DNA from: Gallionellaceae bacterium | Lineage (GTDB): Bacteria > Pseudomonadota > Gammaproteobacteria > Burkholderiales > Thiobacillaceae | NCBI GenBank assembly: GCA_028695325.1 | Contig: JAQVJE010000003.1 | Span: 1 to 54,163 of the forward strand | DNA: 54,163 nt | Direction of reading: 5' to 3' | Shown here: positions 3,106-30,979 of the stretch, one piece after another | Layout of the letters: the number at the start of each line of letters is the position of its first letter | Numbering within the stretch: position 1 is the first letter of the stretch | Position numbers and translations under genes: made by a program | The notes under the pieces: generated by a model | Seen by the model: only the letters and a program-made list of their open reading frames with translations | Database searches by the model: none | Told to the model about the DNA's origin: nothing

Positions 3106-3627
3106 ATGATCGACAAGGACGGTTACCGGCCGAACGTGGGTATTGTCCTTTGCAATGCCCGGAACCAGGTGTTCTGGGGCAAGCGGGTCCGCCAGGACTC
3201 CTGGCAGTTCCCCCAGGGTGGCATCAAGCATGGCGAGACGCCCGAGCTGGCGATGTTCCGCGAACTCAGGGAGGAGGTCGGCCTGCGTCCCGAGCACGTC
3301 CGTATACTCGGCCGCACGCGCGAGTGGATGCGCTACGACGTGCCCAGGGAATGGGTGCGGCGGGAGTGGCGCGGCCATTACCGCGGCCAGAAGCAGATAT
3401 GGTTCCTGCTCCGCCTGATCGGGCGCGACATCGACGTCAGCCTGCGCGCTACCGAGCACCCCGAATTCGACGCCTGGCGCTGGAACGAATACTGGGACCC
3501 CGTCCAGGCCGTGGTGGAGTTCAAGCAGGAGGTGTACCGCCTCGCCCTGGCCGAGCTTGAGCATTTTCTGCAGATCGATCGCCACGAGCGCCCGCGTCCC
3601 CGCCATTACGGCATGAAGGCCCTTTGA
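3106..3627 (+). CDS. rppH: RNA pyrophosphohydrolase (Nudix)
   Basis: [20 protein letters not shown], Nudix box [25 protein letters not shown]. Confidence 0.97.
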
Positions 3628-3640
3628 TAGGAGATAAATA

Positions 3641-5543: not shown

Positions 5544-6110
5544 ATGTCTATCAAATCCGACAAGTGGATCCGCCGCATGGCGCGGGACCACGGCATGATC
5601 GAGCCCTTCGAGGCTGGCCAGGTCAAGGAGGTGAACGGCCACCGCATCGTCTCCTACGGCACTTCGAGTTATGGCTACGATGTACGCTGCTCGAACGAAT
5701 TCAAGCTGTTCACCGACATCAACACCACCATCGTCGACCCCAAGAACTTCGACCCCAACTCATTCGTCGAGGTGAAGGGCGACTCCTGCATCATCCCGCC
5801 CAACTCCTTCGCCCTGGCGCGCACGGTGGAGTACTTCCGCATCCCGCGCAATGTCCTGGTGGTCTGCCTGGGCAAGAGCACCTACGCGCGCTGCGGCATC
5901 ATCGTCAACGTGACGCCGCTGGAACCGGAATGGGAGGGCCACGTGACCCTGGAGTTCTCCAACACCACCCCCTTGCCGGCGCGCATCTACGCCAACGAGG
6001 GCGTCGCCCAGATGCTGTTCTACGAGTCCGACGAGGTGTGCGAGACCTCCTACAAGGACCGCGGTGGCAAGTACCAGGGCCAGACCGGCGTCACCCTGCC
6101 TAAAATTTAA
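5544..6110 (+). CDS. dcd: dCTP deaminase
   Basis: [40 protein letters not shown]. Confidence 0.97.
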
Positions 6111-6112
6111 TC

Positions 6113-6138
6113 TTGCAGCGGCGCGCAGTTCGTATAAT
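6113..6138 (+). promoter_or_regulatory. Possible sigma70 promoter for the decarboxylase gene
   Basis: Perfect TATAAT at 6133-6138 in GC-rich DNA. The upstream TTGCAG is only 14 nt away, so the -35 is uncertain. Confidence 0.4.
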
Positions 6139-6179
6139 CGCGCGCTTCTCCATTTCATCCGTCCAGCGAGGACAGGGCC

Positions 6180-8414
6180 ATGCGCTTCCATTTTCCGGTC
6201 ATCATCATCGACGAGGACTTCCGCTCCGAGAACGTCTCTGGCCTGGGTATCCGCTCGCTGGCCAAGGCGCTGGAGGAGGAGAGCATGGAGGTGCTGGGGG
6301 TGACCAGCTACGGCGACCTGTCCTCCTTCGCCCAGCAGCAGTCGCGTGCCTCGGCCTTCATCCTGTCGGTTGACGACGAGGAATTTGCCGGCGAGAAGGC
6401 CGACCAGACCATCGCCGAACTGCGCACCTTCGTGCAGGAGATCCGCAACCGCAACGCCGACATCCCCATCTTCCTCTACGGCGAGACGCGTACCACCCGC
6501 CACATACCCAACGACGTCCTGCGCGAGCTGCACGGCTTCCTGCACATGTTCGAGGACACGCCCGAGTTCATGGCCCGCTACATCGTGCGCGAGGCTCGCG
6601 CCTACCTGGATTCCCTGCCGCCGCCCTTCTTTCGCGCGCTCACCCATTACGCCGCCGACGGCTCCTACTCCTGGCACTGCCCCGGCCACTCGGGCGGCGT
6701 TGCCTTCCTGAAGTCGCCGGTCGGCCAGATGTTCCACCAGTTCTTCGGCGAGAACATGCTGCGCGCCGACGTCTGCAACGCGGTCGAGGAGCTCGGCCAG
6801 CTGCTCGACCACACCGGCCCGGTCGCCGCCTCGGAGCGCAACGCGGCGCGCATCTTCCAGGCTGACCACCTGTTCTTCGTCACCAACGGCACCTCGACCT
6901 CGAACAAGATCGTCTGGCACTCCACCGTCGCCCCTGGCGACGTGGTGGTGGTCGACCGCAACTGCCACAAGTCGGTGCTGCACGCCATCATCATGACCGG
7001 CGCGGTGCCGGTGTTCCTGATGCCTACGCGCAACCATTACGGCATCATCGGGCCGATCCCGAAGTCCGAGTTCGAGTGGAAGAACATCAAGAAGAAGATC
7101 GCCGCCCACCCCTTCGCCGACAAGAACGCCAAGCCGCGCGTCCTGACCATCACCCAGTCCACCTACGACGGCATCCTCTACAACGTGGAGGAGATCAAGG
7201 AGATGCTGGACGGCCGGATCGACACCCTGCACTTCGATGAGGCCTGGCTGCCCCACGCCGCCTTCCACGACTTCTACGGCGACTACCACGCCATCGGTGC
7301 CGACCGGCCGCGCTGCAAGGACTCCATGGTGTTCTCCACCCAGTCCACCCACAAGCTGCTGGCGGGCCTCTCGCAGGCCTCGCAGATCCTGGTGCAGGAC
7401 TCCGAGACCCGCAAGCTGGACCAGGACGTCTTCAACGAGGCATTCCTGATGCATACCTCCACCTCGCCGCAGTACGCCATCATCGCCTCCTGCGACGTCG
7501 CCGCCGCGATGATGGAAGAACCGGGTGGCCGCGCCTTGGTGGAGGAGTCGATCGCTGAGGCGCTCGACTTCCGCCGCGCCATGCGCAAGGTGGAGGCAGA
7601 ATTGGGCAGCGACTGGTGGTTCAAGGTATGGGGGCCGAAGGACCTCTCCGAGGAAGGCATCGAGGAACGCGCCGCCTGGACCCTGAAGGCAGGCGACAAG
7701 TGGCATGGCTTCGGCAAGTTGGCGGCCGGCTTCAACCTGCTCGACCCCATCAAGGCCACCGTCATCACCCCCGGCCTCGATGTCGACGGCGACTTCGCCG
7801 ACAGCGGCATTCCGGCCAACGTGCTGACCAAGTACCTGGCCGAGCACGGCGTCATCGTCGAGAAAACCGGCCTCTATTCGTTCTTCATCATGTTCACCAT
7901 CGGCATCACCAAGGGGCGCTGGAACACTATGGTGACCGAGTTGCAGCAGTTCAAGGACGATTACGACCGCAACCAGCCGCTCTGGCGCCTGATGCCCGAC
8001 TTCGTCGCCAAGTTTCCGCGCTACGAGCGGGTCGGCCTCAAGGATCTGTGCTGCGAGATCCACCACGTCTACCGGGCACACGACGTGGCGCGCTTGACCA
8101 CCGAGATGTACCTTTCCGACATGGTGCCGGCCATGCGCCCGGCCGACGCTTTCGCCAAGATGGCGCACCGCGAGATCGAGCGGGTCGAGATCGACGACCT
8201 GGAGGGGCGCATCACCTCCACCCTGCTCACCCCCTATCCGCCCGGCATCCCGCTCCTGATCCCGGGTGAGCGCTTCAATGCCACCATCGTGCGCTACCTG
8301 AAGTTCACCCGCGAGTTCAACGAAAAGTTCCCCGGCTTCGAGACCGACGTACACGGCCTGGTCAAGGACCGCCGTAACGGTCGCACCCGCTACTACGTCG
8401 ACTGCGTGGCCTGA
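6180..8414 (+). CDS. Arginine/lysine/ornithine decarboxylase (fold-type I PLP, wing domain)
   Basis: WHCPGHSGG, VTNGTSTSNK, DRNCHKS, HFDEAW, QSTHKLL (PLP lysine), HTSTSPQY, PYPPGIP. Confidence 0.95.
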   Translation: MRFHFPVIIIDEDFRSENVSGLGIRSLAKALEEESMEVLGVTSYGDLSSFAQQQSRASAFILSVDDEEFAGEKADQTIAELRTFVQEIRNRNADIPIFLYGETRTTRHIPNDVLRELHGFLHMFEDTPEFMARYIVREARAYLDSLPPPFFRALTHYAADGSYSWHCPGHSGGVAFLKSPVGQMFHQFFGENMLRADVCNAVEELGQLLDHTGPVAASERNAARIFQADHLFFVTNGTSTSNKIVWHSTVAPGDVVVVDRNCHKSVLHAIIMTGAVPVFLMPTRNHYGIIGPIPKSEFEWKNIKKKIAAHPFADKNAKPRVLTITQSTYDGILYNVEEIKEMLDGRIDTLHFDEAWLPHAAFHDFYGDYHAIGADRPRCKDSMVFSTQSTHKLLAGLSQASQILVQDSETRKLDQDVFNEAFLMHTSTSPQYAIIASCDVAAAMMEEPGGRALVEESIAEALDFRRAMRKVEAELGSDWWFKVWGPKDLSEEGIEERAAWTLKAGDKWHGFGKLAAGFNLLDPIKATVITPGLDVDGDFADSGIPANVLTKYLAEHGVIVEKTGLYSFFIMFTIGITKGRWNTMVTELQQFKDDYDRNQPLWRLMPDFVAKFPRYERVGLKDLCCEIHHVYRAHDVARLTTEMYLSDMVPAMRPADAFAKMAHREIERVEIDDLEGRITSTLLTPYPPGIPLLIPGERFNATIVRYLKFTREFNEKFPGFETDVHGLVKDRRNGRTRYYVDCVA

Positions 8415-16891: not shown

Positions 16892-18307
16892 TCAGGGGGT
16901 CGCGGCCAGGATGGTGTTCGGGCGCTGGAAGTACTGCGCCGCCGCCACCACGGCGTCGCGCATGCGGATCGGCGACCCGCGCAGCATCGGCTCGACCAGG
17001 CTGCGCACGGCCTGGCGGTGGTTCCAGTATTCCGCGTAGGCGCGCGGCTGGCGGTCCGGGTAGTTGCGGTCGTAGTCCTGCCGGTACTGTTGCTCGGTCA
17101 TGCCGTAGTGGGTCAGGATGTCGAGCAGGGCAAACGGGAACATGCTCGAGGTGAGGCGGCCGGCGCTTTGCGCCGCGCGCCCCTCGGCGGTGCCGGCGAA
17201 GCGTTCCATCTCCAGGGCCAGGCGGTTGATCTCGTTGGTCAGGTAGCGCTTGCGTCGTTCCTGCCAGAGGCCGCCGAGGGCGGTGTTGATCATCGCCAGG
17301 GCCTCGTCCTGGTTGTCGTTGACCTGGCGCCAGAAATACATGTGGAAGCCGGTCGAGGTGCTTTCCGAGAACAGCAGGTACCAGCCGGGCACGTCCCACC
17401 AGCGGTAGCGACGCCAGACGTAGCTGCCGGTGCGCTGCTCGGGCGGCAGCTCGCTCAGGCTGCGCCGTTCCTCGGTGTGCGGCGCGTTCCACATCTCCGC
17501 GGTGCCGGCCAGGAAGGAGCGGCTCTCGATCAGGTAGCGCACGTCGTTGCGCGACCAGAAGCGGTTGAGGTCCTCCCAGCCGGCCGGCGTGTTGTGCATC
17601 TGGCCGAAGAAGGTGCCGAGGCCCTCCTCCAGCGGCAGTTCCTGCTCGGCCATCAGTTCGGACACGTAGTGGTCGCCGTCGCCGCCGTAGACGATGCTGA
17701 TTGAGCCCCACTTGGTCTTTTCGCCGACGAACTGGGTGTGGAAGGTCTCGTGCAGGATGGTGCCCTCCCAGGCCAGCCAGCCGCCCGGCCGGCCCTGGAT
17801 CTGGCCGCTGGCCAGCTCGCCCAGGCGGATGACGCCGCGGTAGCGGTCGCCGGTGGCGGGCGCCACCGAGGCCGCTGGCCAGACCGCCGTCTTGCCGCCG
17901 ATGCTGGAGGTCGAGAAGATGCCATTGTTGGTGAGACCGGTGCGGTCGTCGACCAGCAGGTAGATCTCGTCGGTCTTGCCGCCGTTGATCTGGGTGACCT
18001 GGTCGACCCGCCTGCGCAGGGCCTGGCCGCTCTGCAGGACGTCGTAGGTGCGCAACATGTTGGCCGGTGCCTGGGCCCGGAAGGTGGCCCGGTTGGCGGC
18101 GGTGATCTCCACCCCCTTGTAGCCGGTGGCCAGGCCCTCGAAATGGGTGGCGCCCGGGAAGGCGGCCTCGATGGTGGCGGAGGGCGCGACGAAGACGAAT
18201 TGCATCGTCACCGCCGCCCAGGCCTGGCCGGCCAGGAGCAGGCCGGCGGCCAGGAGGCCGGCCCATGCCGGGCGGGCGCTCGATTGCCAGGTTGATGTCG
18301 TGCGCAT
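16892..18307 (-). CDS. Secreted putative zinc metallopeptidase (operon gene 7)
   Basis: Signal peptide ending AWA, ILHETFH (HExxH, 17738-17752), downstream EEGLGTF. AGGAG RBS. Confidence 0.75.
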   Translation of the reverse strand: MRTTSTWQSSARPAWAGLLAAGLLLAGQAWAAVTMQFVFVAPSATIEAAFPGATHFEGLATGYKGVEITAANRATFRAQAPANMLRTYDVLQSGQALRRRVDQVTQINGGKTDEIYLLVDDRTGLTNNGIFSTSSIGGKTAVWPAASVAPATGDRYRGVIRLGELASGQIQGRPGGWLAWEGTILHETFHTQFVGEKTKWGSISIVYGGDGDHYVSELMAEQELPLEEGLGTFFGQMHNTPAGWEDLNRFWSRNDVRYLIESRSFLAGTAEMWNAPHTEERRSLSELPPEQRTGSYVWRRYRWWDVPGWYLLFSESTSTGFHMYFWRQVNDNQDEALAMINTALGGLWQERRKRYLTNEINRLALEMERFAGTAEGRAAQSAGRLTSSMFPFALLDILTHYGMTEQQYRQDYDRNYPDRQPRAYAEYWNHRQAVRSLVEPMLRGSPIRMRDAVVAAAQYFQRPNTILAATP

Positions 18308-18318
18308 GGTGGGTCTCC

Positions 18319-20409
18319 TTAGGGCAGTTCGTCGACGAACAGGATGGCGTCGCTGGTGGTCTTGCGCCCCGAGGACACCGTCTTGTTGCCGGGCAGGCGC
18401 CAGCTGATCTCGTAGCCGTAGTCGTACTGGTTGGCGGGCAGCATGAACTCGACCCGCTCGGACAACTGGCCCTTGGCCGGGTTGAGGCTGACCGTGCGCG
18501 ACTGCTCGACGCCGCCCAGGCTGTAGTACAGCTTCACCGTGATGGCGCGCACCCCGGCCTGGCCGATCAGGGCCGGGTCGGCCTGCAGTTCCACCGTGCG
18601 GCGCTGGTAGGGCGGCGCCAGGTTGATGGCGCCGGTGCTGGCGCGCTGCCAATCGCCCTCGATGGCGTTGCCGCCGAAGAAGCTCCAGGCGGTCTTGTAC
18701 TCGTAGTCCATCCAGCGGCGGCGGTCATTGTCGCCCTTCCAGCCGTACAGAAGCTTGAAGTTGTTGCCCTCCTTGTTGAAGTTGTTGCGGTCGATGCGCA
18801 CCTCGTCATCGGTGATCTGGCCGCCCTGGTGGGTCTTGCGCAGGCGCACGTTGACGAAGTTGACATACTGGCCGAAGTCCTGCGCGTTGAGGCCGTCGAC
18901 GAAGGCGACGATCTCGCGCTGGCGGAACAGCGGGTCGTCCAGGTTGACCTCGCGGAAGTGGGCGGCATCGCCCTTCAGGCTCCTGAGGTCGCCGATGTTC
19001 TCGTCGAAGCGCAGGGTGAGGGTGTCGCTGTTGTACTTGTTGAGGTCGATGCGGAAGATGCCGCGCTGCCGCACCTTCTTCATCTCGTAGGCGGCGACGA
19101 TGGCGAAGGCGGGCTTCGCCACCTCTTCCTTGCGTGGGGCCCGGCGGTCCGGGTCGGGGTCGCCGACGGCGCGGCTGACCGGGGCCTGGCTGGTCTCCTG
19201 GGGCGGCTGCACGGTCTGCCGGGCCTGGGCCGGCACCGCCGGTCCGGCCTGCTCGGCGGGCACCTGCTGGGCGGCCGAGATGTCCCTGGAGTCGCTGCGG
19301 CCGCCGGGCTGGGCGGTGGCGGCGGGTGGCGTCGGCTGGGTGGCGGTGGCGGTAGCGGTAGCGGGCGGCGGGGTGGTACGGGTCGCCGCGGCGCGTTCGT
19401 CGGCGGCGCGGTTCTCGGCCCGGATGCGGGCGTTCTCCTGGTCGGCCTCCTGGCGTGCGCGCTGCAGCTGGGTGCTGGCGCGGTCGAGCAGGCTGCCCTG
19501 GCCGCCGGCGGCGCCGGCCAGGCTGGTGAGGTCCGGCGTGCCGGTGCCGCCCATGGGGGCGAACATCATGTCGGCGATCTTGTTGTAGGCGGTGGTGATG
19601 AGGGCATCGAGCTTCTCGTCGGCGCCGACCTGGGTGAGCTTGATGGCGCCCTTGCGGGTGAGGTCGTCGAAGGCGGTCTTGATCTCGGCCGACAGGTAGC
19701 TGCTGGCCAGACCGGCGCCGAAGGCCTGGTGCTCGTAGATCTGGTCGAAGTCGGCCTCGATGACGGCGCGGTGCGGCGAGCGGAAGCCGGTCATATCCAT
19801 CTCGAAGGAGAACGAGATGTCCGGCGTCGGGGTGTTGAACGACTCCCACAGCACCTTGGCGCCCTGCTTGGTCAGCTGCATCGACACCGCGGCCTTTTCG
19901 CCGTCCAGGATGGGGGCGTTGCCCAGCCCCACCACCTGGGTGGTGAAGCCGCCCTGGGGATCCTTGAACGAGGAAACCAGTCCGAACTTGCCGGACTTGA
20001 ACACCACCGGCCCCTCGATGCGGGCGCCCGGCCTGACCCGTTGCAGTTCACGGCGGGCGTCGCCGAGCTGTTCCGGGCTGACCGCGAGTGCCACCACGGC
20101 GTGCACGATGCCGCCGCCCTCGCCCTCGCGCGCCTCGGGCTGGTCGGCGCCGGAGCGCACGTTGTCGACGTAGCGCAGGAAGGAAAACTGCGGCCGGCCG
20201 TTGGCGTCGGTGGCCAGGCGCGGCTTGTCGGACACGTAGTAGTAGACCTTGTCGTCGTTGAGGTCCGGGAACAGGGTCAGCTCGCCGGCCTTGACCGGCT
20301 TGTCGAGCAGTATCTGCTGTGCCCACGCCGGCAGCGTCGCCGCCAGCATGGCCAGGGCCAGGCCGCGCAGAGCCAGGCCCTGCATCAGTTTCGTCTTGGT
20401 GCGCATCAT
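18319..20409 (-). CDS. Secreted hypothetical protein, paralogue family member with Pro/Ala/Thr-rich insert (operon gene 6)
   Basis: Signal peptide, YYYVSDKPRLATDANGRPQFSFLRY, FREVNLDDPLFRQREI, C-terminal LFVDELP. Confidence 0.85.
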   Translation of the reverse strand: MMRTKTKLMQGLALRGLALAMLAATLPAWAQQILLDKPVKAGELTLFPDLNDDKVYYYVSDKPRLATDANGRPQFSFLRYVDNVRSGADQPEAREGEGGGIVHAVVALAVSPEQLGDARRELQRVRPGARIEGPVVFKSGKFGLVSSFKDPQGGFTTQVVGLGNAPILDGEKAAVSMQLTKQGAKVLWESFNTPTPDISFSFEMDMTGFRSPHRAVIEADFDQIYEHQAFGAGLASSYLSAEIKTAFDDLTRKGAIKLTQVGADEKLDALITTAYNKIADMMFAPMGGTGTPDLTSLAGAAGGQGSLLDRASTQLQRARQEADQENARIRAENRAADERAAATRTTPPPATATATATQPTPPAATAQPGGRSDSRDISAAQQVPAEQAGPAVPAQARQTVQPPQETSQAPVSRAVGDPDPDRRAPRKEEVAKPAFAIVAAYEMKKVRQRGIFRIDLNKYNSDTLTLRFDENIGDLRSLKGDAAHFREVNLDDPLFRQREIVAFVDGLNAQDFGQYVNFVNVRLRKTHQGGQITDDEVRIDRNNFNKEGNNFKLLYGWKGDNDRRRWMDYEYKTAWSFFGGNAIEGDWQRASTGAINLAPPYQRRTVELQADPALIGQAGVRAITVKLYYSLGGVEQSRTVSLNPAKGQLSERVEFMLPANQYDYGYEISWRLPGNKTVSSGRKTTSDAILFVDELP

Positions 20410-22355
20410 TGGCCTCCGCCGATCACGTCCTTGAAGCGGTCGAGCACCTTCTCGGTGGTGCCGGTGACCGCGGCCCTGGCCGCCTCCTTGGCGGCCTCCT
20501 TGACCGCCACCTCGGCCAGCAGTTCGGCCGGGATGGCGGCGTAGATGTAGTCGTCGCCGACCTGGGCGCTCCAGGGCAGGGCCAGCTTGCCCTCGGTCTT
20601 GTGGTTGACCACCAGGCGGTAGGCATAGCCCTTGGCGCCGCGGTCGGTGAATATCCGCTTGCTCACCAGGGGCTGGCCCTGGGCCGGCGAGAGGTGGATG
20701 TTCTCCTCCACCTCCTGGCCGAAGCGCGGGTAGTGCACCTGCACGGTGACCCGGGTGATGCCCGACTCCTGCATGGCCTGGAGGTCACCCTCCACCTCGA
20801 GGGTGCGCGGCACCACCGGCGGCGCCAGGGTGACGCCCTCCCAGCTGCCCTTTTCCCAGGCCGGGTTGGCCGGCCACACGTTGCCGCCCTTCAGGCTCCA
20901 CTGCGCCTGGTACTCGTACAGGTCGGGGTTGCGGTCGTCGCCGCGCGCGTAGGTGACCGTGGCGTTGATGCCCTTTTCCTTCAGGTAGCGGGCGTCCAGG
21001 GTGACGCGATCCTCGAAGGCCCGGCCGCTGCTGCGGTTCTTGCGCACGTTGACGGTGACGTAGTTGATCGCCTCGTCGAAGATCTCCTTGGCGTCGAGGT
21101 CGAGGATGAAGTTGATGTCGCGGTGTTGGAAGAAGGGGTCGTTGAGGTTGACGCTGGCGACGCACTTCGGGTTGTCGCGCACGCCGTTGTACCAGGAGGC
21201 CAGGTTGCCGACCAGCTGGTAGGGCCGCTTCACCGCGATGCGGTAGTTGAGGTCGAACACCTGGGTCTTGCGCGCGAAGGCCTTCTTGAACGACGAGGTC
21301 TTGTAGGTGTACTTGTCGCCGGTGCGGATGTTCGGCTTCTCTTCCTTGGCCTTGTCGTCCTGCGCCGGCGGCACCTGGGCCTCGGGCTGCTCGGGCTGCG
21401 CCATGGTGTTGAGGAAGAACTGCAGGAAGGCATCGCGTATCTTGCTCACCCGCTCGTCCGACAGGGTCTCCTGGAACTCGAACTTGACCACCTGCTTCTC
21501 CTGCAGGAATTTCCACTGCTCGGCGGTCTCCTCGTAGCTGTACGAGTAGGTCGCCGAACTGGAACTGGCGCAGAAGATCAGGAAGCAGGATTTCTTCGAC
21601 TGGGTGCCGGTGCGCTTGCGCTCGTATTCGGCGGCGAAGGTCTGGCCCTCCTTCTCCAGCTTGGACCAGTCGAAGGTGATGCGGCCCTTGGCGGCCGGGG
21701 TGAGGGTCTGGTAGCCGAAGTTGAGGGCGATCGACAGGTCGGTGATGGAGCGCGCCTTCTCGAAGGTGGCGGCCATCAGCTGGGCACCCTCGGCGGTCAG
21801 GCGGGAGGCGGTGGCGACCTTGCCGCCGGGCACCAGGGGGGCCTTGCCGGAGGTCACCACGGAGGGCGCCAGGCCCTTGTCGGTGAGGGTGGCGGAGACG
21901 ATCTGGAAGCTGGCCGCCTCGCCGCCCTCGCTTTCCATGGGCACCGCGCCCTTGAGCTGGGCGTTGCGGTTCTGCTGCTTGAGCTTGGCGGCCAGGTCGG
22001 CCTCCTGGGCCGGGGTGAGGCCCCACTCCATGAGGAAGTGCATCAGGGCGCCGCTGATGCCGCCCTGGGCGGCGCTCTGCTCGGTGGTGAACTTGAGGAA
22101 CAGGAACTCCGGCGTGCGGTCCGGCCGCTGCGACAGGCGCAGGTTGACCGGCAGGTAGTAGTAGTTGGCGCTCTTGATGCCGCGCGTCGCACCGGCCTCG
22201 CCGTACAGGGTCACCTGGGTGCCGTCGGACAGGGTGACGTCGAGGCGGTTGTCGTCGTCCAGCACCACCGCGGCGGCGCCACCAGCCCAGGACAGGACGG
22301 CGGCGGCCAGCAGGGAGCGGAACAGCGTGTGCAGCGATCTTTGTGTGTTTGTCAT
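20406..22355 (-). CDS. Secreted hypothetical protein, paralogue family member (operon gene 5)
   Basis: Signal peptide, YYYLPVNLRL...PEFLFLKF, SGKAPLVPG, VNLNDPFFQHRDI. ATGA overlap with gene 6. Confidence 0.85.
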   Translation of the reverse strand: MTNTQRSLHTLFRSLLAAAVLSWAGGAAAVVLDDDNRLDVTLSDGTQVTLYGEAGATRGIKSANYYYLPVNLRLSQRPDRTPEFLFLKFTTEQSAAQGGISGALMHFLMEWGLTPAQEADLAAKLKQQNRNAQLKGAVPMESEGGEAASFQIVSATLTDKGLAPSVVTSGKAPLVPGGKVATASRLTAEGAQLMAATFEKARSITDLSIALNFGYQTLTPAAKGRITFDWSKLEKEGQTFAAEYERKRTGTQSKKSCFLIFCASSSSATYSYSYEETAEQWKFLQEKQVVKFEFQETLSDERVSKIRDAFLQFFLNTMAQPEQPEAQVPPAQDDKAKEEKPNIRTGDKYTYKTSSFKKAFARKTQVFDLNYRIAVKRPYQLVGNLASWYNGVRDNPKCVASVNLNDPFFQHRDINFILDLDAKEIFDEAINYVTVNVRKNRSSGRAFEDRVTLDARYLKEKGINATVTYARGDDRNPDLYEYQAQWSLKGGNVWPANPAWEKGSWEGVTLAPPVVPRTLEVEGDLQAMQESGITRVTVQVHYPRFGQEVEENIHLSPAQGQPLVSKRIFTDRGAKGYAYRLVVNHKTEGKLALPWSAQVGDDYIYAAIPAELLAEVAVKEAAKEAARAAVTGTTEKVLDRFKDVIGGGQ

Positions 22356-22382
22356 GGTGCCATCCTTCCTGGGGTTGCGCAT

Positions 22383-24134
22383 TCAGGGGCCGGGGCGCGC
22401 GGGCTCCGGCAGTTCGTCGATGAATATCAGGCCGCTGGAGTCGCGTCCGCCGCGGTTCAGGCGCTGGTTGCCCTCCAGCTGCCAGGTGATGCCGTAGTCG
22501 TAGTTGTACTGGTTGAGCGGCAGGGTGATCTCCAGCTGCTGCTCGTCGATCGGCCGGTCCGGCCGCGCCACCAGCTGCTGGCGCCGCTTGCCGGTGAAGA
22601 AGGGGTATTCCACCTGCACCACGACGGCGCGCACGCCCTGCCGCCGGAGCGCCTCGGTGTCGCCCAGCAGTTGCACCGTGCGCCGCTCGTAGGGCGCGAA
22701 GAGATCGATCATGGCCTTGTCGTCGCGCACCCAGTCGCTGGCGTAGGTGCCGCCGCCCTTGAAGTTCCAGCGCGTGCGCCAGTCGTAGGCGAGCCAGGCC
22801 AGGCGGTCGGCGTCGCCGCTCCAGCCGTACACCAGGCGCAGGTCGTTGCCGGCCTTCTTCACCGTCTCGCGGTCGATCACCAGCTCGCGCAGCGTCTCGC
22901 GGCCGTCCTGGTGCTGCTTGCGCAGGGTGACGGTGACGCTGTTGACGAAGCGGTCGAACTCCGGCAGCAGGGCGCCGTCGACACCGACGTGGATCTCGCG
23001 CTGCTGGAAGGTCGGGTCGTCCAGGTTGACGGCGCGGAAGTAGTTGGGGTCGCTGCCGTAGCGCTTGTGGAAGTCGCCGATGTTGAAGGTGATGAAGCTG
23101 TGCCGCTCCACCGTGGCGCGGTGGTTGAAGTTGAGCGTCGAGGTGCCGGAGGAGCGCATGTCCTTGAGCTGGAAGCCGGCGTGCAGGCCGAAGCCGGTGG
23201 TCTTGCCACTGGATAGCAGGCCTCCCTTCTGGTTGATGAGGGCGCCGATGGCGTCGCTCAGGCCGCCGCGCTGGTCGGCCGGCACCCGTTCCGGCTCGAC
23301 GCGGCGGAACATCAGCTCGAGCAGCTTGCCGTAGACGTTGTTGAGCAGGCCCTCCATGGCCGCGTCGCTGCCGGAGGAGCGCAGCCGGATGGCGTTGTTG
23401 CGCAGCATGTCGTCGAACATCGCCTCCACCTCGGCGCTGACGAAATAGACGCTGCCGCCGGCCGAGAAGCCCTTGCTCTTGCGCACCTCCGACCAGTCGA
23501 TGAACAGCTCGGCGTCGTAGGCGTCGGAGAGTCCCTGGAAGGACATGTCGAACACCAGGGAGACGTCCGGGGTGGCCATCCGGAAGCTCTCCATGAGCAG
23601 GCTGGCCTCCTCCGGCCGCAGCTCGAACGACAGGGCCAGGCGGTCGCCCTCCAGCACCGGGGCTCGGCCGCTGGCGAGCAGCCTGCGTTCGGGCGGGCCG
23701 CCCGCCGGGTTGAGGACGGAGGAGACCAGGGCGTAGCGGCCGTCGGCGAACACCACCGGGCCGCGCAGGACGATCTCGTCGTCCTTAAAGTGCTGGCGCA
23801 GCGCCTTCTGGGCCGCCTCGACCTGCCCGGCCGGGGTCTCGTAGAGGACCAGGAAGTGCAGCACGCCGCCGCCGCCGGCCGCGGTGACGGTGGCGCTGCC
23901 GGCCTCGGCGGCCGGCCGGTTGACCACGTAGCGCACGAAGGAGAACTGCGGCCGGCCGTCCTCGTCGGTGGCCAGACGGGCCTGGTTGGGCAGGTAGACG
24001 TACTGGCGCGGGTTGTCGGCGAGGGGGAAGCACCACAGGCCGCCGATGCGCATGCCCTGGTCGATGGCGAGCGGCTGTGCCGCCGCCGGCAGGACGAGCA
24101 CCAGGGCGAACAGCAGGGCGGCCAGGCGGGTCAT
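22383..24134 (-). CDS. Secreted hypothetical protein, paralogue family member (operon gene 4)
   Basis: MTRLAALLFALVLVLPAAA signal, YVYLPNQARLATDEDGRPQFSFVRY, FRAVNLDDPTFQQREI, IFIDELP. Confidence 0.85.
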   Translation of the reverse strand: MTRLAALLFALVLVLPAAAQPLAIDQGMRIGGLWCFPLADNPRQYVYLPNQARLATDEDGRPQFSFVRYVVNRPAAEAGSATVTAAGGGGVLHFLVLYETPAGQVEAAQKALRQHFKDDEIVLRGPVVFADGRYALVSSVLNPAGGPPERRLLASGRAPVLEGDRLALSFELRPEEASLLMESFRMATPDVSLVFDMSFQGLSDAYDAELFIDWSEVRKSKGFSAGGSVYFVSAEVEAMFDDMLRNNAIRLRSSGSDAAMEGLLNNVYGKLLELMFRRVEPERVPADQRGGLSDAIGALINQKGGLLSSGKTTGFGLHAGFQLKDMRSSGTSTLNFNHRATVERHSFITFNIGDFHKRYGSDPNYFRAVNLDDPTFQQREIHVGVDGALLPEFDRFVNSVTVTLRKQHQDGRETLRELVIDRETVKKAGNDLRLVYGWSGDADRLAWLAYDWRTRWNFKGGGTYASDWVRDDKAMIDLFAPYERRTVQLLGDTEALRRQGVRAVVVQVEYPFFTGKRRQQLVARPDRPIDEQQLEITLPLNQYNYDYGITWQLEGNQRLNRGGRDSSGLIFIDELPEPARPGP

Positions 24135-25927
24135 GGCTGGGCGGCCTCGGGCGGGACCAGGAACAGGTAGTCGGTGTCGAGCAGGAGCAGGCCGCCCTTG
24201 ACCGTGCGGCTGGGCGAGAACCAGGAGGCGCGGTAGCCGATCGGGGTGTCGCGGTCGTGGTAGAGGGCGACCAGGCTGGTGGTCTGGGCGTCGCCGGCGC
24301 GCAGGGTGGCCTTCCTCTGCAGGCGGTTCTTGTTGCCCAGCGCGGTGGCGAACTCGACCACCGCGGTGGCCATGCCGGCCTGGCCGAACAGGCTGCGGTC
24401 GGCGTCGATCTCCACCACCCGCTTCTCGAACGGCGGCGTCAGCGACACCGCGGCGTCCTTCGACTTCAGCCATTGCTCCTCCCTGGCCGGCACCGCCAGG
24501 GTGGGGCCGTCGCGCACGCTCCAGCGCACCTGGTACTCGTACTCGGTCCAGTCGGCGCCGCTCTCACCCAGGCGCGGGAAGGCCACCTCCTGCACGGTGC
24601 GGCCGGCCTTCACGTCGGCGTGCGAGAAGCGCAGCGAGCGGGTGAAGTCGGGCTTGTCCGGGTAGCGCTTGCGCACGTTGACGGAGACGAAGTTGATGGT
24701 GTCCTGGAAGGCGTCGATGTATTCGCCATCGACCTGGAAGTGGACCTGGCGGAACTCGAAGGCGGGGTCGGCCAGGTTGACCACCCGGAAGTAGCGCGGG
24801 TCGTCCGCCATGGCCTTGTAGAGGCCGCCCAGGTTGCCGGCGGTGTCGACCGGCACCTTGATGGTGGAGCTCTTCGACAGGGTGACGTTGAACACGTTGC
24901 GGCGGATGTCGGTGCGTTTCTTGAGGACGAACTGGTCGTCGGTGAAGTACTTGGTGTCCTGGGCGCCGCCGAACACGCGCGAGAACCAGCCGCGTTCCTG
25001 GCGGCCCTGGATCTGGTTGGCCTCGACGGCGGTCTCGCGCGGCGGGTCGGCGGCCCAGCCGCTGGTGTGGTCGAACATCAGCTCGGTGAGCTTGTCGGTG
25101 ACCACCTGCAGGATGCCCTCCATGTCGCTGGCCTTGAGGCCCAGCCCGGCGGTGCGGTCGAGCACCTCGATCTTCAGGGTGCCGTTGCGCTGCAGGTCGT
25201 CCATGACCTTGCGCAGCTGGCGCTTGGTGTAGCCCTTCTGCACGTTGGAGATGCGGCTGAAGTGCTCGTAGACGCTCGACACCTCGGCGCTGACGCGGGC
25301 GTTGTAGCCCTTCACGGCGGCCTCGTAGTAGGCGTGGATGGCTACCGAGACATCGGAGGTGGGGCCGGTGAGCGAGTCCCACAGCAGGGTGGCGCCCTGC
25401 TGGTTGAGCAGGGCCGCCACCACGGCGCGCGAGCCGGGGATCAGGGGCGCCTTGCCGGAGCTGATGAGTGAACGGGTGAAGCCGCCGGCCGCGCGGTCGG
25501 ACAGGATGGCGGAGACGATCTGGAACGAACCCTGGCCTTCCTCGCCGTTGTCGACCGCCTGCATGAGGGGCACGGGGCCGACGATGCGGGCGCCGGCCTG
25601 GGTCTTCTTGAGCTCCTTCTCCACCTCCTCGACCACGTCGGGCGGCAGGGTGAACTCGACCAGGGCGTGGAACAGGCCGCCGCTGGCGCCGCCATTGGCG
25701 TCGACGTACTTCAGGCAGAGCAGTTCCAGGCTGCCGTCCTCCTTGGTGGCCAGGCGCGGGTACTGGGGCAGGTAGTAGTAGGCACCGGGGTCGCTGGCGT
25801 CCTGCAGCAGCTGGATGCCCTTCACGGTGCGCTGGCCCTCGTCGAAGTTGACCAGGGCAGTCGCCGTGCCGGGGCCGAGCAGGCAGGCCAGGGCGATGAG
25901 CAGGCGGCCGAACAGGGTGGCTTTCAT
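24131..25927 (-). CDS. Secreted hypothetical protein, paralogue family member (operon gene 3)
   Basis: Signal peptide, YYYLPQYPRLATKEDG, SGKAPLIPG, FRVVNLADPAFEFRQV. ATGA overlaps at both ends. Confidence 0.85.
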   Translation of the reverse strand: MKATLFGRLLIALACLLGPGTATALVNFDEGQRTVKGIQLLQDASDPGAYYYLPQYPRLATKEDGSLELLCLKYVDANGGASGGLFHALVEFTLPPDVVEEVEKELKKTQAGARIVGPVPLMQAVDNGEEGQGSFQIVSAILSDRAAGGFTRSLISSGKAPLIPGSRAVVAALLNQQGATLLWDSLTGPTSDVSVAIHAYYEAAVKGYNARVSAEVSSVYEHFSRISNVQKGYTKRQLRKVMDDLQRNGTLKIEVLDRTAGLGLKASDMEGILQVVTDKLTELMFDHTSGWAADPPRETAVEANQIQGRQERGWFSRVFGGAQDTKYFTDDQFVLKKRTDIRRNVFNVTLSKSSTIKVPVDTAGNLGGLYKAMADDPRYFRVVNLADPAFEFRQVHFQVDGEYIDAFQDTINFVSVNVRKRYPDKPDFTRSLRFSHADVKAGRTVQEVAFPRLGESGADWTEYEYQVRWSVRDGPTLAVPAREEQWLKSKDAAVSLTPPFEKRVVEIDADRSLFGQAGMATAVVEFATALGNKNRLQRKATLRAGDAQTTSLVALYHDRDTPIGYRASWFSPSRTVKGGLLLLDTDYLFLVPPEAAQP

Positions 25928-27057
25928 CGGGTTTCCTCCGGTGGGTTTGGCGCCGAGGTGACGTCGAGCAGCGCGCTCCAGGACGGGCGCTCGCGCCAGG
26001 GCGACGTGAGGCTGCTGCCGTCCTTCATCACCTCGGTGACGCGGTAGCGGTAGGGGCGATCTAGGCGCACGGCGAGCGGGAAGCGCAGGCCGCGGGCGTA
26101 GAGGTCGGGCTGGTCCTGGCGGAACAGCGTGGCCAGGCGGATGCGCTGGCCGCCAACCCCCTCGGCCTCGATGTCGACCTCTTTCTCGGCCAGGTCCGGG
26201 CGCAGCTGGTCGCTGAAGTCGTAGCAGTAGACGTCGAGGGCGGCATAGCCGGGCGGCACGGCCTCGTTGACGTCGACCTGGCGCAAGAGCTCGGGCCAGC
26301 GCCTGGCATCGATGCGGATGGCGGTGGCGCCGGCGCGCACCAGGGCGGCGCCGTTGGCCGGCCGGGCGGCAGCCTGTTCACGCAGGGCGGCGAGCAGTCT
26401 GGGGCTGCCGCACAGCTCGGCCAGGGGTTCGCCGGGCGGGATGCCGTCGGCGTGGAAGGCGTAGCCGAGCGAGATCACCACCTGGCCCTTTTGCAGGGCG
26501 TCGCGGAACAGCTGCGAGGTGGCGTTGTCCAGGCCCAGGGTGTAGTCGCGCTCGCGCCAGTAGGCCGAGGCGGTGCTGCGGCCTTCGGCCTCGGCCTCGA
26601 AGTGGCCGCCGGGCAGGGTCTCTTCCTCGCCGGCCGCGCCGGCGTCGGTGGCGGCGGCATAGACCAGGGCGGTGTCCAGGCGGCGGATCGGCAGCGGTCG
26701 CAGCTCGGCGCGGCCGCCGCCCAGGGCGGCGCGCGCCGCCCGGACTTCATCGGCACCGGGTCCGGCCAGGCGGACCTTGAACGACAGGACGCTGCGGAAC
26801 AGGGCGGTGCCGCGGTCGGCCGACACCACGCTGCCGGTGTAGCGCATCTGCAGCAGGTGCAGTTCGGGGCGGCCGTCCGGCGCGCTGGCCAGGACGATTT
26901 CGCCGGGCGGGTAGTAGTAGAGGTCGGCACGGCGATCGTCCGGATAGACGACCAGGGGGCCGGCCGGCTTGCCCAGGCGCAGGTCCGGCCGCGCCATCGC
27001 GGGTGCCGCCAGGGCGACCAGGCAGGCGACGAGCAGCAGCCGCTTCATGCGACGCAC
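25924..27057 (-). CDS. Secreted hypothetical protein, shorter family relative (operon gene 2)
   Basis: Signal ending AMA, YPDDRRADLYYYPPGEIVLASAPDGRPEL matches the family N-terminal motif. Alternative ATG at 27048. Confidence 0.8.
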   Translation of the reverse strand: MRRMKRLLLVACLVALAAPAMARPDLRLGKPAGPLVVYPDDRRADLYYYPPGEIVLASAPDGRPELHLLQMRYTGSVVSADRGTALFRSVLSFKVRLAGPGADEVRAARAALGGGRAELRPLPIRRLDTALVYAAATDAGAAGEEETLPGGHFEAEAEGRSTASAYWRERDYTLGLDNATSQLFRDALQKGQVVISLGYAFHADGIPPGEPLAELCGSPRLLAALREQAAARPANGAALVRAGATAIRIDARRWPELLRQVDVNEAVPPGYAALDVYCYDFSDQLRPDLAEKEVDIEAEGVGGQRIRLATLFRQDQPDLYARGLRFPLAVRLDRPYRYRVTEVMKDGSSLTSPWRERPSWSALLDVTSAPNPPEETR

Positions 27058-27061
27058 CCCG

Positions 27062-29398
27062 TCACTCGCCGGGCAGGCGGCCGATGGATTGTCTGATCTG
27101 GGAGGTGCCGATCACCACCCGGAGGCGGTCGGCGGCCACCCAGTTGGCGCCGTTGTAGGTGGTGCCGTCCTTCATCACCAGCTCGATCTGGTACTCGAAC
27201 AGCGCCCCCTCGGCCTGCGGGTCCTGGTAGAGCGGTCCGATGCTGAAGTCCTCGCCGTCGGCCTTCAGCACCAGCGGCCCCTTGGTCTGTACCTCGCGGC
27301 TGTGCGGGTCGAAGTAGCGCGAGCGCACCATGACCGACATCTCGGCCGCGTTGAGGTCGGCCAGCGGGGTGAGGGTGTGGAAGGTGATCGGCGCCGCGCC
27401 CAGGGTGGAGACGCCACCGGTGATCGCGGCCACCACCTCGCGGTCGCAGGCCGCGCAGTCGCGTTCCACAGCGTAGTCGAGCCACATGCGCTTGGCCTTG
27501 CCGTCCAGCCAGGCCGGCACCCGGGCGCTGTCGAACTCGGCCTGCGCCCGCGGCGGCACGGTGACGTCGTCGAGCTTCCACGAGTAGACGATGGGCAGGT
27601 CGTTCTCGAACAGCAGTGCGTGCATGTAGCGCAGGCGGAGCGGATAGGGGGTGACGTTGCGCCACTTGGCGCCGCGCTGCCAGCGGATGTCGCCGAAGGT
27701 GGTGCGGTCGGCCAGCTTGATCTCGACCGGGATGCGCTGCGGCGGCAGGGCGCCGCCGGCTGGGCTGAAGGTCAGGCTGCCATTGATGCCGATGTCCTCC
27801 ACCAGGGCGATCTGCAGGTTCTCCTTGGTCACGCTGTCGGTGGCCCACTGGATGTCGATCTGGCCGAGGGCGTCGGAGATGGCGTTGATGGCGATCTTGT
27901 CGGCCGGGATGCTGTAGACCTGCTGCAGGCCGCCGGCCAGGCTGATCTCGGGCGGCTTGTCGATGGGCAGGCGGCGCAGTTCGGTGAACACGCTGCCAGG
28001 ATTGCGCTTCTGCCAGGCGCGCAGGAGGTCGCCGACGAAGGCGATGTCGCCGCTGTCGACGCCGGCGTCCAGGCGCGCCGCCATCACCACGGCGCCGGCC
28101 TGGTCGCTGCCGGCGGCGGCGCCGTAGAGCATGCGCAGGCCGTAGCCCTCGGCCGGGTCCCAGAGCAGGTGGTAGGCCTTGGGCATGAAGTAGAAGATGC
28201 CGGAGGCCGGGTTGCGGTCCTGGTAGACCTGCGGCCAGATGCGCATCACCTCGGCCGGATCCTGGCCGGCCTCGAAGCCGATCTGCGACACCAGGTCGAT
28301 GGGCAGGGCACCCGGCCCCCTGGCGCCCTTGCCGAGGTTCTCGGCGGGCAAACCGAACTTGAAGCGCGACACCTCGAGCATCGGCTTGGCGGAGACGGCG
28401 AGCGGCTTGATCACAGTGGTCGCCGGCGGAGCGGCGGCCGGCCGGGCGGTGGCCAGCGTCAGGGGGCGTGCGGCCAGCGTGGCCACGGCGGCGCCTCGCA
28501 CCGTCGTGGCGGCGGCGCCCTCGGCCGGCTTGGCCTTCACGCCGGAGACGCAGCAGCTGTCGCGCCGGGCGGCGGGCACGCCGGTCTTCAGCCAGCAGCG
28601 CGCGCTGCTGCCCTGCACGCCGGGCTTGACGTAGGTGAAGGACTGGCAGCGCGCCTCCCGCTCGCAGGCCTGCTGGCACAGCCTGGGATCGGCGCTGGCC
28701 AGGTTGAAGCTGGTGTAGTCCATGCCGGGGCGGTTGCTGTCCTGCTCCAGCGTGGCGGTGACGGCGACCGCCGTGGCCGCCACCACCGGGGTGGCCAGCC
28801 TCACCGTCTGCAGCCTGGGCATGACCAGGATGGGCTGCTCGCGCAGGCGTGCCGCGGCGCCCTCGGGCTGCATGACGACCTTCAGCACCAGGTTCTCGGC
28901 GCTGATGGCACGCGACCATTTCTTCGGCAACTGGAACATGCGCTCGGTCTCGGCGGCGCTCTTGCCGGGCTTGTGGACGCGCAGGCGCAGGTAGGCGGAG
29001 CGCAGCTCGGTGCCCTCCGGCGCGGCGGCATCCAGGTCCAGGGTGAGGTCGCCCTCGTCGGCCTCAGGCAGGGTGACGCGGGCGGCGGGCACTTCGCGCT
29101 GTACCGCCTTCTGGCCATCCAGCACCTCGGCGCGCACCTCCTTGCCGGCCAGCCGCTTGCCGCTGACATGGACGACCAGGCGGCGTTCGCTGTCCTCGCC
29201 CACGGTGACCTTGTCGAGGGTCGCCGCCTTGTCGTTCATCAGGCCGCGCAGCAGGCCGCCGATGAGGGCCTGCTCGTCGACGAATGGCTGCAGCTCACGG
29301 CCCTGCAGGTCGCTGTAGCCGTCCGCGCAAGCCGGACTGGCAGCGCCAAGGAAAAGGATTATCGATATTGCGATTGCATGCCGGCGCGCGCTGCCCAT
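27062..29398 (-). CDS. Secreted PAN/Apple-domain protein with family-like C-terminal part (operon gene 1)
   Basis: Signal peptide. NRPGMDY...CQQACEREARCQSFTYVKPG...CWLK...CCVSGVK PAN/Apple pattern. YQDRNPASGIFYFMP resembles the family motif. Confidence 0.8.
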   Translation of the reverse strand: MGSARRHAIAISIILFLGAASPACADGYSDLQGRELQPFVDEQALIGGLLRGLMNDKAATLDKVTVGEDSERRLVVHVSGKRLAGKEVRAEVLDGQKAVQREVPAARVTLPEADEGDLTLDLDAAAPEGTELRSAYLRLRVHKPGKSAAETERMFQLPKKWSRAISAENLVLKVVMQPEGAAARLREQPILVMPRLQTVRLATPVVAATAVAVTATLEQDSNRPGMDYTSFNLASADPRLCQQACEREARCQSFTYVKPGVQGSSARCWLKTGVPAARRDSCCVSGVKAKPAEGAAATTVRGAAVATLAARPLTLATARPAAAPPATTVIKPLAVSAKPMLEVSRFKFGLPAENLGKGARGPGALPIDLVSQIGFEAGQDPAEVMRIWPQVYQDRNPASGIFYFMPKAYHLLWDPAEGYGLRMLYGAAAGSDQAGAVVMAARLDAGVDSGDIAFVGDLLRAWQKRNPGSVFTELRRLPIDKPPEISLAGGLQQVYSIPADKIAINAISDALGQIDIQWATDSVTKENLQIALVEDIGINGSLTFSPAGGALPPQRIPVEIKLADRTTFGDIRWQRGAKWRNVTPYPLRLRYMHALLFENDLPIVYSWKLDDVTVPPRAQAEFDSARVPAWLDGKAKRMWLDYAVERDCAACDREVVAAITGGVSTLGAAPITFHTLTPLADLNAAEMSVMVRSRYFDPHSREVQTKGPLVLKADGEDFSIGPLYQDPQAEGALFEYQIELVMKDGTTYNGANWVAADRLRVVIGTSQIRQSIGRLPGE

Positions 29399-29480: not shown

Positions 29481-29508
29481 ATGATAGGAGTGGCCCCTGC
29501 GGCGTCAA
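29481..29508 (-). promoter_or_regulatory. Candidate sigma70 promoter of the seven-gene operon
   Basis: Minus strand TTGACG-N16-TATCAT, about 80 nt upstream of the ATG at 29398. Confidence 0.55.
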
Positions 29509-29533: not shown

Positions 29534-30979
29534 TTAGGCGGCGGCCTCCTCCTTGCGCCGGCGGCGATCGCCCAGCGAGCCCGCCAGCATGCCGACGATG
29601 GCCATCAGGAAACCGGCGAACTGGGGCGGGATGGGGCCGTCGCCCTCGGGCAGCCAGACCTCCATGGGGATCCAGGTCGCCATGCCGAGGGCGATGGCCC
29701 AATGGGCCCCCCGGGTGGTGGCGCGCCGCCAGTAAAGGCCGGCCACCAGGGGCACGAAGGCAAGCACCAGGGTGACCTTGTAGGCGTTCTCCACCATCTG
29801 GTGGATGCCGGTCTCCTGCTCCAGCGACCAGAGCGAATACAGGGTCACCAGGACGGTGAACACCACCACCACCCAGCGGGTGATGACCAGCAGCTGGTGG
29901 TCGGGCAGGTGGCGGCGCCAGGTGATGAAGTCCTTGATGACGTTCTCCGAGAGGGTCACCGAAGGGGCCAGCAGGGTGCCCGAGGCGGTCGACATGATGA
30001 CCGACAGCAGGGCGCCGTAGAAGACCACCTGGGCGAACAGGGGCAGGTGGCCCTTGACCAGTTCAGGCAGCAGCTTCTGGCTGTCCTCGGCGAGCCACCG
30101 GGCGGCCAGGGCGGGGTCGATCAGGTTGGCGGAGTAGGCCAGGAACAGCGGCACGGCGGCGAACAGGAAATAGGCCACGCCGCCCGCCACGGTGCCCCAC
30201 ACGGCGACCTTCTCATTCTTCGACGAGTTGGCGCGCTGGAACACGTCCTGCTGCGGGATGGAGCCGAAACCCATGGTCAGCAGCCCAGAGATGAACGCGA
30301 CCATGGCCACCGCGTTGAGCTCCGGCCAGAAGTGGAACTTGGCGTTGCCGGCGGCGTGCTCGATCACCGGGGCGACGCCGCCGGTCATGCCGCTGACCAG
30401 CCAGGCGATGTAGAGGAGGCCGATGACGATGACGATCATCTGGAAGAAAGTGGTGAGCGCCACCGACCACATGCCGCCGTACAGGGTGTACATGAGCACC
30501 ACGGCGGCGCCGATCAGGATGCCCTGCTGCTGGGTGATCTGGCCATCGGAGAGGACGTTGAACACCAGGCCCAGCGCGGTGACCTGGGCCGACACCCAGC
30601 CGAGATACGACAGCGCGATGGCGATGCCGGTGATGACCTCGACATTGCGGCCGAACCTTTCCCGGTAGAAGTCGCCGATGGTGAGCAGGTTCATCCGGTA
30701 CAGCCTGCGGGCGAAGAAGAGGCCGAACAGGATGAGACACAGCGAGGCGCCGAACGGGTCGGAGATCAGACCGCCCAGGTCCTCCTCCATGAAGGTGGCC
30801 GGGATGCCCAGCACGGTCTCGGCGCCGAACCAGGTTGCGAACACCATGGCCATGACGATGTAGAGGGGCAGGGAGCGGCCGGCGGCGATGTAGTCCTTGG
30901 CGTTGTGGACCTTGGTGGCGGCGTAGAAGCCGATGCCGAGGGAAACCACCAGGTACAGGATGACGAAGCCAAGCAGCAT
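29534..30979 (-). CDS. Sodium:solute symporter family protein
   Basis: DYIAAGRSLP, ATWFGAET, YTLYGGMWSVALT, QQDVFQR, IMSTAS. Many TM helices. Confidence 0.92.
   Translation of the reverse strand: MLLGFVILYLVVSLGIGFYAATKVHNAKDYIAAGRSLPLYIVMAMVFATWFGAETVLGIPATFMEEDLGGLISDPFGASLCLILFGLFFARRLYRMNLLTIGDFYRERFGRNVEVITGIAIALSYLGWVSAQVTALGLVFNVLSDGQITQQQGILIGAAVVLMYTLYGGMWSVALTTFFQMIVIVIGLLYIAWLVSGMTGGVAPVIEHAAGNAKFHFWPELNAVAMVAFISGLLTMGFGSIPQQDVFQRANSSKNEKVAVWGTVAGGVAYFLFAAVPLFLAYSANLIDPALAARWLAEDSQKLLPELVKGHLPLFAQVVFYGALLSVIMSTASGTLLAPSVTLSENVIKDFITWRRHLPDHQLLVITRWVVVVFTVLVTLYSLWSLEQETGIHQMVENAYKVTLVLAFVPLVAGLYWRRATTRGAHWAIALGMATWIPMEVWLPEGDGPIPPQFAGFLMAIVGMLAGSLGDRRRRKEEAAA

Follow-up and report, generated by a model that had tools for sequence, protein, structure and literature searches.

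What would seven tightly packed genes for exported proteins, four of them diverged paralogs that no family library names, build together? The question is raised by an operon within the first 54,163 nucleotides of contig JAQVJE010000003.1 (assembly GCA_028695325.1, a Gallionellaceae bacterium), the stretch referred to here as the window. An earlier note, made from the sequence alone, had described the genes, here called g1 to g7 in reading order, as secreted paralogs accompanied by a PAN/Apple protein and a metallopeptidase, and had offered pore formation as a hypothesis, with a surface filament or lattice as the alternative. The answer favored here, with moderate confidence, is that the seven-gene system is a secreted complement-like β-barrel attack complex that stands outside MACPF/CDC and contributes three strands per subunit, not four. 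That a membrane barrel of some use is formed is considered quite probable, since the barrel is common to the readings as a secreted attack complex, as a channel in the producer's own membrane and as a defense pore.

A Family of Exported Paralogs

The operon structure proposed earlier was borne out: the seven genes all lie on the minus strand, with gaps of 13, -4, -4, 27, -4 and 11 nucleotides from g1 to g7, and each encoded protein opens with a hydrophobic stretch (best 19-residue Kyte–Doolittle (KD) value 1.57-2.24) ending at an AxA-like cleavage site, as judged by eye. A lipobox is absent from six of the proteins; the single match, at residues 6-9 of g2, was rejected as too early and absent from the ortholog consensus. 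The core proteins g3-g6 are indeed paralogs over their full length, with best local matches of 24-39% identity (blastp E 1e-12 to 1e-57), and the motifs previously listed for them are invariant alignment columns. The N-terminal module of the family extends to g2, whose ~200 N-terminal residues are common with the core (hhalign 99.2%), and to g1, where it is internal, behind the PAN domain (93.2% to g2); a direct comparison of g1 with the core gave only 47% by hhalign, in the C-terminal part.

The core did remain without a named family: library scans named nothing except PAN_4 in g1, and no match to a characterized family was found in profile, PDB sequence or PADLOC searches, the last giving no convincing match and two weak partial ones, to g4 only. 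Likewise, no MACPF/CDC signature emerged, either from the MACPF or Thiol_cytolysin profiles, unmatched at E up to 1 with whole proteins and up to 10 with the D2 regions described below, or from PDB sequence searches.

A Hairpin Predicted to Be Stored as Helices

The model of g4 consists of an immunoglobulin (Ig)-like sandwich (D1, residues 24-202 and 341-353), into which an alpha/beta domain is inserted (D2, 203-340), and two C-terminal sandwiches (D3, 377-481, and D4, 482-578). Fold searches with this model returned generic Ig matches only. Within D2, strand 206-213 is paired with strand 249-254 at i+j=461, and the intervening 35 residues are modeled as two helices and a loop. Mean-field covariation, performed on 505 collected sequences, adds a second picture. 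In the 339 sequences of g4 and g6, register 461 runs on through the model helices, with a mean z of 1.76 over 214-226 that none of 6052 other windows reaches, and its neighbors show the side peaks (459/463) and troughs (460/462) expected of antiparallel strands. The peak recurs separately in g4, in g6 and in g3 (0/6052 for g3), and random half-samples gave 1.33-1.79. When the second strand was exchanged among sequences, the maximum in 25 shuffles was 0.07 vs. 2.14; this block-swap null breaks relatedness, while the window backgrounds retain it. Residues 233-245 also show helical i,i+4 coupling (1.13, vs. 1.15 for a true helix); as this coexists there with the hairpin register, both states seem to be selected.

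The extended hairpin would turn at Y230-F231, with a hydrophobic outward face and a polar inward one in 213/213 g4 and 124/125 g6 sequences (KD 2.55/-1.25 and 2.42/-1.08, respectively). The g6 class is the fairer test, because the faces were defined on g4. The outward face is not hydrophobic in g3 (KD -0.85) or g5 (-0.9). Hairpin length is fixed at 36 residues in 79/80 g3, 207/213 g4 and 101/125 g6 sequences, and a hydrophobic patch is found in 55 of 70 g5 hairpins, near the middle in 46 of these 55.

A Third Strand and a Predicted Seam between Subunits

In the g4 model, strand 331-338 pairs antiparallel with 206-213, and the covariation signal reaches further, to ~314: for all 486 sequences kept, none of 2185 windows attains the value of antiparallel register 544. 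Alternate residues of 315-323, level with the hairpin belt, are hydrophobic in 173/209 g4 and 86/124 g6 sequences, compared to 0/85 for g3 and 9/77 for g5. It is in g4 and g6 only that a belt of bilayer width is aligned over three strands, with aromatic edges and small or acidic residues inside.

The second hairpin strand, in turn, couples in parallel with the third strand, at an offset of 85 (score 1.18, reached by 0/1593 windows). This is two more than the 83 expected within a subunit; offset 85 outscored 83, and did so too in seven of eight half-samples. The same +2 shift (185 vs. 183), a strong antiparallel peak and the same belt were found in 120 distant proteins, designated type C below. 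A complex model of the N-terminal halves of g3, g5 and g4 gave g5-g4 a score of 0.70, vs. 0.00 for the best of three controls, with runs agreeing in at least 77% of contacts and a partner pLDDT (predicted local distance difference test) of 69; the mark used for such scores, which is roughly applicable here, is reached by 116/157 solved complexes and 2/215 mismatched pairs. An inter-subunit contact, for which the earlier note had proposed to look, is predicted in the form of head-to-tail g5-g4 binding: g5 sets one of its D1 faces against the opposite D1 face of g4, and conservation of both faces extends to all four core classes. Because the g5 equivalents of 253-256 lie on g4 338-341 in this interface, offset 85 was placed between subunits.

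A comparable shear is on record, as a passage of PMC4318580 gives two residues per subunit for the pleurotolysin pore (S 26 for 13 subunits). For three strands per subunit, a two-residue shift was calculated to yield a tilt of ~26 degrees, a belt of ~28 Å and a barrel of ~74 Å.

Proposed Mechanism

With covariation and amphipathic belts, the pore-forming hypothesis gains support from sequence. Subunits are predicted to stack through opposite D1 faces, g5 on g4, into a ring; the helices of 214-248 would unfold into the hairpin, strand 313-339 would extend alongside, and the second hairpin strand would join the neighboring subunit's third strand in a parallel pairing with a two-residue shift, resulting in a barrel of the height and belt just given. 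The g4 and g6 proteins are the predicted membrane-spanning subunits, g3 is predicted not to span a membrane, and g5 is likely a membrane anchor that would bind g4 head to tail. The remaining steps are drawn by analogy. The g1 protein, likely the targeting or initiating subunit, would select the target via a swappable binding module; together with g2, a likely adaptor, and the polar g3, it would form a platform. Then g5 would anchor by its hydrophobic tip, and g4 and g6 would insert, one or both perhaps repeating until the ring closes, while g7 would activate subunits or clear the target surface. Export would occur by Sec and then perhaps by type II secretion, which the GspD secretin present in the genome allows and does not show.

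A further, tentative idea concerns the segment between the hairpin and the third strand. Helix 257-275 covaries with Y206, A208, L210, N247, I249 and L251. If the strands are free of bulges, these residues face away from the belt and the helix would line the lumen; the chain that follows would then have to reach the third strand at its tip end. The segment, which occupies the place of a would-be fourth strand, varies from 29 to 735 residues (33-735 in the g6 class, exceeding 100 residues in 84/124), and in g6 of this operon it comprises 158 helical, Pro/Ala/Thr-rich residues. TPR arrays were found in eight long g6-class representatives checked and a GDSL lipase in one (42 proteins scanned), low-complexity linkers also occur in this segment, and a g5-class protein, P0154, ends in a caspase domain. 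It is possible, if doubtful, that these proteins constitute a widespread, undescribed class of pore machine, in which a heteromeric barrel with three strands per subunit and parallel seams between subunits has this segment threaded through its lumen to the far side to deliver cargo, secreted in types A and B and cytoplasmic in type C (see below), as an independent bacterial complement; the threading itself is our inference.

Comparison with Known Systems

In the complement membrane attack complex (MAC, C5b-C6-C7-C8-C9), the short hairpins of C6/C7 touch the outer leaflet and C8/C9 span the bilayer, as outlined in part of PMC6294249. A similar grading of paralogs is seen here, with g3 polar, g5 tipped, g4 and g6 carrying the full belt, and g1 and g2 devoid of the domain. 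Unlike MAC, the system shows no MACPF profile match, has a single hairpin, flanked by helices, and a third strand where MAC has two hairpins, is predicted to make its oligomer contact through the Ig-like sandwich, and is encoded in a single bacterial operon with its own binding module and peptidase. The topology shared by MACPF/CDC proteins is described in PMC11952106, in the portion relied on here, as a core twisted sheet with two helical bundles that become two transmembrane hairpins per subunit, whereas the model and covariation point to one helix-flanked hairpin and one strand; the helix-to-β-hairpin switch with an amphipathic belt, predicted for g4 and g6, is a common trait. The resemblance extends to the CDC-like toxins (CDCL) of Bacteroidota, and to CDCs, as secreted bacterial heteromers with helices predicted to unfold into a transmembrane β-hairpin and a protease nearby; the same portion of PMC11952106 reports that CDCL activation occurs by proteolysis, removing an N-terminal loop. 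The best reading is that the system works like MAC or CDCL and is not a member of MACPF/CDC, given the absence of a profile match and the different hairpin count.

Further systems were compared. The single-hairpin β-pore formers (aerolysin, alpha-hemolysin and protective-antigen types) also have an amphipathic hairpin in each subunit, one whose outward residues are small and whose turn holds aromatics. In contrast to these, the hairpin here is stored as helices in the model, non-inserting paralogs exist, the predicted barrel includes a third strand and a parallel pairing between subunits, and there is no sequence match; Pfam gave none for this group and fold searches listed Ig-type rows only. 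Mce heterohexamers likewise derive from an operon of about six paralogs kept one for one in order. They differ in that no MlaD match or helical tunnel was found here, the g4 model being beta-rich, with three sandwiches and a small alpha/beta domain, and in that the starts of these proteins resemble signal peptides and not retained anchors. Type V pilins carry a lipoprotein signal, which sets them apart from the proteins described here.

Distribution and Locus Types

A profile of the four core proteins collected 2001 clusters at 50% identity (E up to 0.001). Around g4-like genes, located by a scan seeded with g4 patterns, 82 loci were fetched, some of them near duplicates: 66 follow the order 1-2-3-4-5-6 (type A, many of them truncated at contig ends), 13 the order 1-2-6long-3-5 (type B), and three are rearranged. 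Homologs are therefore clustered and not scattered singletons, as at least two family genes occur in 81 of the 82 loci, the remaining one being a 1.2 kb contig that lies within g4. A g7-like peptidase is found in 17/19 type A loci with at least 1.5 kb downstream. Named hosts of types A and B include Bacteroidota, Gemmatimonadota, Acidobacteriota, Armatimonadota and Eisenbacteria, along with the Pseudomonadota-like window.

The operon was found in none of 60 relatives, and distant matches occurred in 2/400 other genomes of the phylum. Three of the five congeners tested carry the two flanking genes, DHH and symporter, next to each other and with no operon between them, so that the operon was either inserted at a site that is otherwise empty or lost from the relatives. 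The sodium:solute symporter gene (window 29534-30979) shares 58-61% identity with the congener copies, as against 75-83% for the DHH gene across the operon, and may have arrived with the island. One congener has a second, broken DHH and symporter copy (G005:C2:167344-169539).

Type C comprises distant clusters of several paralogs, in which a hydrophobic leader is present in 0/120 proteins (vs. 245/269 in types A and B). Such clusters lie on Pararhizobium and Paracoccus plasmids and in two genomes of the phylum, with homologs in Cyanobacteria, Anaerolineales and Actinomycetota, including Amycolatopsis and Arachnia. In the two plasmid clusters (L097:5317-22381 in Pararhizobium NZ_CP119567 and L098:5120-30453 in Paracoccus NZ_CP102356) the proteins are annotated as hypothetical; the neighbors of the Paracoccus cluster encode trypsin, EAD1, NTPase, phospholipase D and tyrosinase.

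Additional variation was observed among the loci. After g4 (and before g5, where present), eight loci (L029, L032, L055, L057 at 3117-3803, L058, L064, L065 and L068) contain a conserved gene for ~230 residues without a Pfam match, a candidate accessory or immunity protein that is absent from the window. Several type B loci (L070, L071 at 6049-7386, L073, L074, L076, L077, L081 and L082) combine a shorter g1 with a separate neighbor gene weakly matching the carbohydrate-binding NPCBM (E 0.004), as if the binding module had been split off g1. A second, distant HExxH peptidase family replaces or joins g7 behind g6 (L002:11589-13112, L020, L024, L039, L042, L056, L063 and L068), and belt-bearing subunits can be tandemly duplicated (two g4-like in L040:6256-9818, two g6-like in L033:4203-8425).

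Weighing the Explanations

Use of the system in conflict is suggested by its patchy presence, the empty site in congeners, the lipase and caspase fusions, and the type C cluster that adjoins genes for trypsin-EAD1-NTPase and phospholipase D. A number of results, however, weigh against a secreted attack complex. The pore, the killing and the oligomer are all predicted only; the operon holds no immunity gene and no result points to a target. The monomer models do not display the extended hairpin, and the covariation is of modest depth (effective 110-360 related sequences). Register 461 is weaker in g5 (5/6052), and its peak is not significant in type C alone (158/5383 windows reach it). In the g4 and g6 subset, register 544 is not significant (68/2185) and it is 542 that is rarely reached (4/2185), and offset 85 is not significant in g6 alone (24/1593). 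The complex model is not independent of the covariation, because the alignments share sequences. The peptidase was found in 0/7 type B loci within the fetched flank, and a secreted weapon cannot hold unchanged across the superfamily, because type C lacks signal peptides. Finally, we know of no membrane barrel to which each subunit gives three strands and in which the seams are parallel, and a literature search returned none.

All the barrel evidence would suit either membrane. The same structure might serve the producer itself: assembling unaided in its outer membrane, the barrel would act in export or uptake, in a role like that of a secretin or CsgG, and g1 would capture the glycan or protein to be carried. 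In favor of this, proteins with Sec-type signals reach the periplasm first, the operon lacks an immunity gene, and the named hosts of types A and B belong to what we take to be diderm groups. We nevertheless regard such a channel as unlikely: Amycolatopsis, Arachnia and Anaerolineales have belt-bearing type C proteins without signal peptides, a lipid anchor is lacking, neighborhood clustering shows no conserved transporter or inner-membrane partner, and the distribution is patchy. Moreover, hairpins graded from polar through tipped to spanning fit a stepwise attack more than housekeeping. Distinctly unlikely, in our view, is a triggered defense pore, whose periplasmic (in type C, cytoplasmic) subunits would assemble on the invader or on the cell's own membrane once a phage or predator is sensed by g1 and the subunits are cleaved by the peptidase. 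The surroundings of type A and B loci show no recurrent sensor or NTPase gene, the EAD1 neighbor occurs in one locus only, and the PADLOC matches are the two weak partial ones to g4. In its favor, that one type C cluster does adjoin trypsin, EAD1 and STAND-type NTPase genes, which part of PMC7159879 describes as components of conflict systems; the caspase fusion of P0154 and the island-like insertion of the operon agree with it, and suicide needs no immunity gene.

The filament or lattice put forward earlier has been weakened, and a non-membrane polymer (a pilus, surface lattice or tube) now ranks as the least likely of these explanations. Its amphipathic strands would pack on other protein and, in an arrangement resembling type V pili, g1 would serve as the tip adhesin and g7 as the maturase. 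The combination of a paralog operon, a protease and a tip lectin is pilus logic as well, the predicted head-to-tail interface is open-ended, and the Ig-rich subunits match adhesin-like proteins, among them a putative adhesin of Bacteroides (5cag, E 1.1e-3, TM-score 0.28). Against these points stand the bilayer-width belt over three strands, with its aromatic edges and small or acidic interior confined to g4 and g6, the absence of lipoboxes, and the constant +2 shift per subunit, a barrel property according to a passage of PMC4318580.

Features of the Operon

Table 1. Operon features, with positions in the window and residues of the encoded proteins (aa, amino acids).
Feature	Position	Strand	Description
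Sigma-70-like promoter candidate upstream of g1	29481..29508	minus	10/12 matches
g1	29398-27062	minus	778 aa; variable N-terminal binding modules (here PAN_4), then family Ig-like module without hairpin domain
PAN/Apple domain of g1	28586..28735	minus	Residues 222-271; PAN_4, E 8.6e-18
g2	27048-25924	minus	374 aa; family N-terminal sandwich and beta-rich C-terminal part, no hairpin domain
g3	25927-24131	minus	598 aa core paralog; fixed-length hairpin, same covariation register, both faces polar
g4	24134-22383	minus	583 aa core paralog; D1-D4
g4 switchable hairpin	23373..23519	minus	Residues 206-254; helical at 214-220 and 233-245 in model; belt 223-240
g4 third strand	23118..23198	minus	Residues 313-339; amphipathic 315-323
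g5	22355-20406	minus	649 aa core paralog; longer polar hairpin, hydrophobic cysteine-flanked tip 256-264
g6	20409-18319	minus	696 aa core paralog, nearest g4; amphipathic hairpin and third strand
g7	18307-16892	minus	471 aa secreted HExxH zinc-metallopeptidase-like protein, unnamed family

The promoter candidate is weak, one such site having been found where 0.6 are expected by chance. The PAN/Apple domain reported in the earlier note is present in g1, and yet it is not a constant part of the system: among 37 g1 orthologs, PAN, DUF7910 and a pilin Ig module were each found once, and PAN is, as far as these sequences indicate, a swappable module of g1. In g3, the lumen-facing hairpin positions (220, 222, 226, 228, 235, 237 and 241 in g4 numbering) are polar with 81-100% conservation, which suggests a specific binding surface.

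The metallopeptidase assignment of g7 was sustained by an HExxH at residues 186-190 followed by EEG at 227. Residues H186, E187, H190, E228 and G229 are invariant across seven aligned orthologs, and HExxH is found in 91 of 93 homologs (the two lacking it are incomplete), and a strict pattern detects (E/N)EG downstream of it in 58 of the 93. With HExxH and a downstream glutamate ligand, g7 resembles gluzincin-type zinc metallopeptidases, on what we take to be the definition of their motif; unlike them, it gave no match in Pfam, NCBIfam or PDB sequence searches.

Significance

A literature search, with supplements outside its scope, found no description of the core family. Ordered paralogs that end in a β-barrel pore are a complement-like strategy known from MACPF/CDC proteins, as portions of PMC11952106 and PMC6294249 relate. 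The family described here appears to reach this strategy with a different fold and a barrel geometry for which we know no precedent; its function is a prediction. That prediction is specified at the level of residues, by the turn at Y230-F231, registers 461 and 542/544, and offset 85. If the cargo-delivering machine described above were true, a bacterial complement would have arisen independently of MACPF/CDC and gasdermin. The unannotated family spans many phyla, and the finding would add a new pore-forming superfamily, giving a function to thousands of hypothetical proteins.

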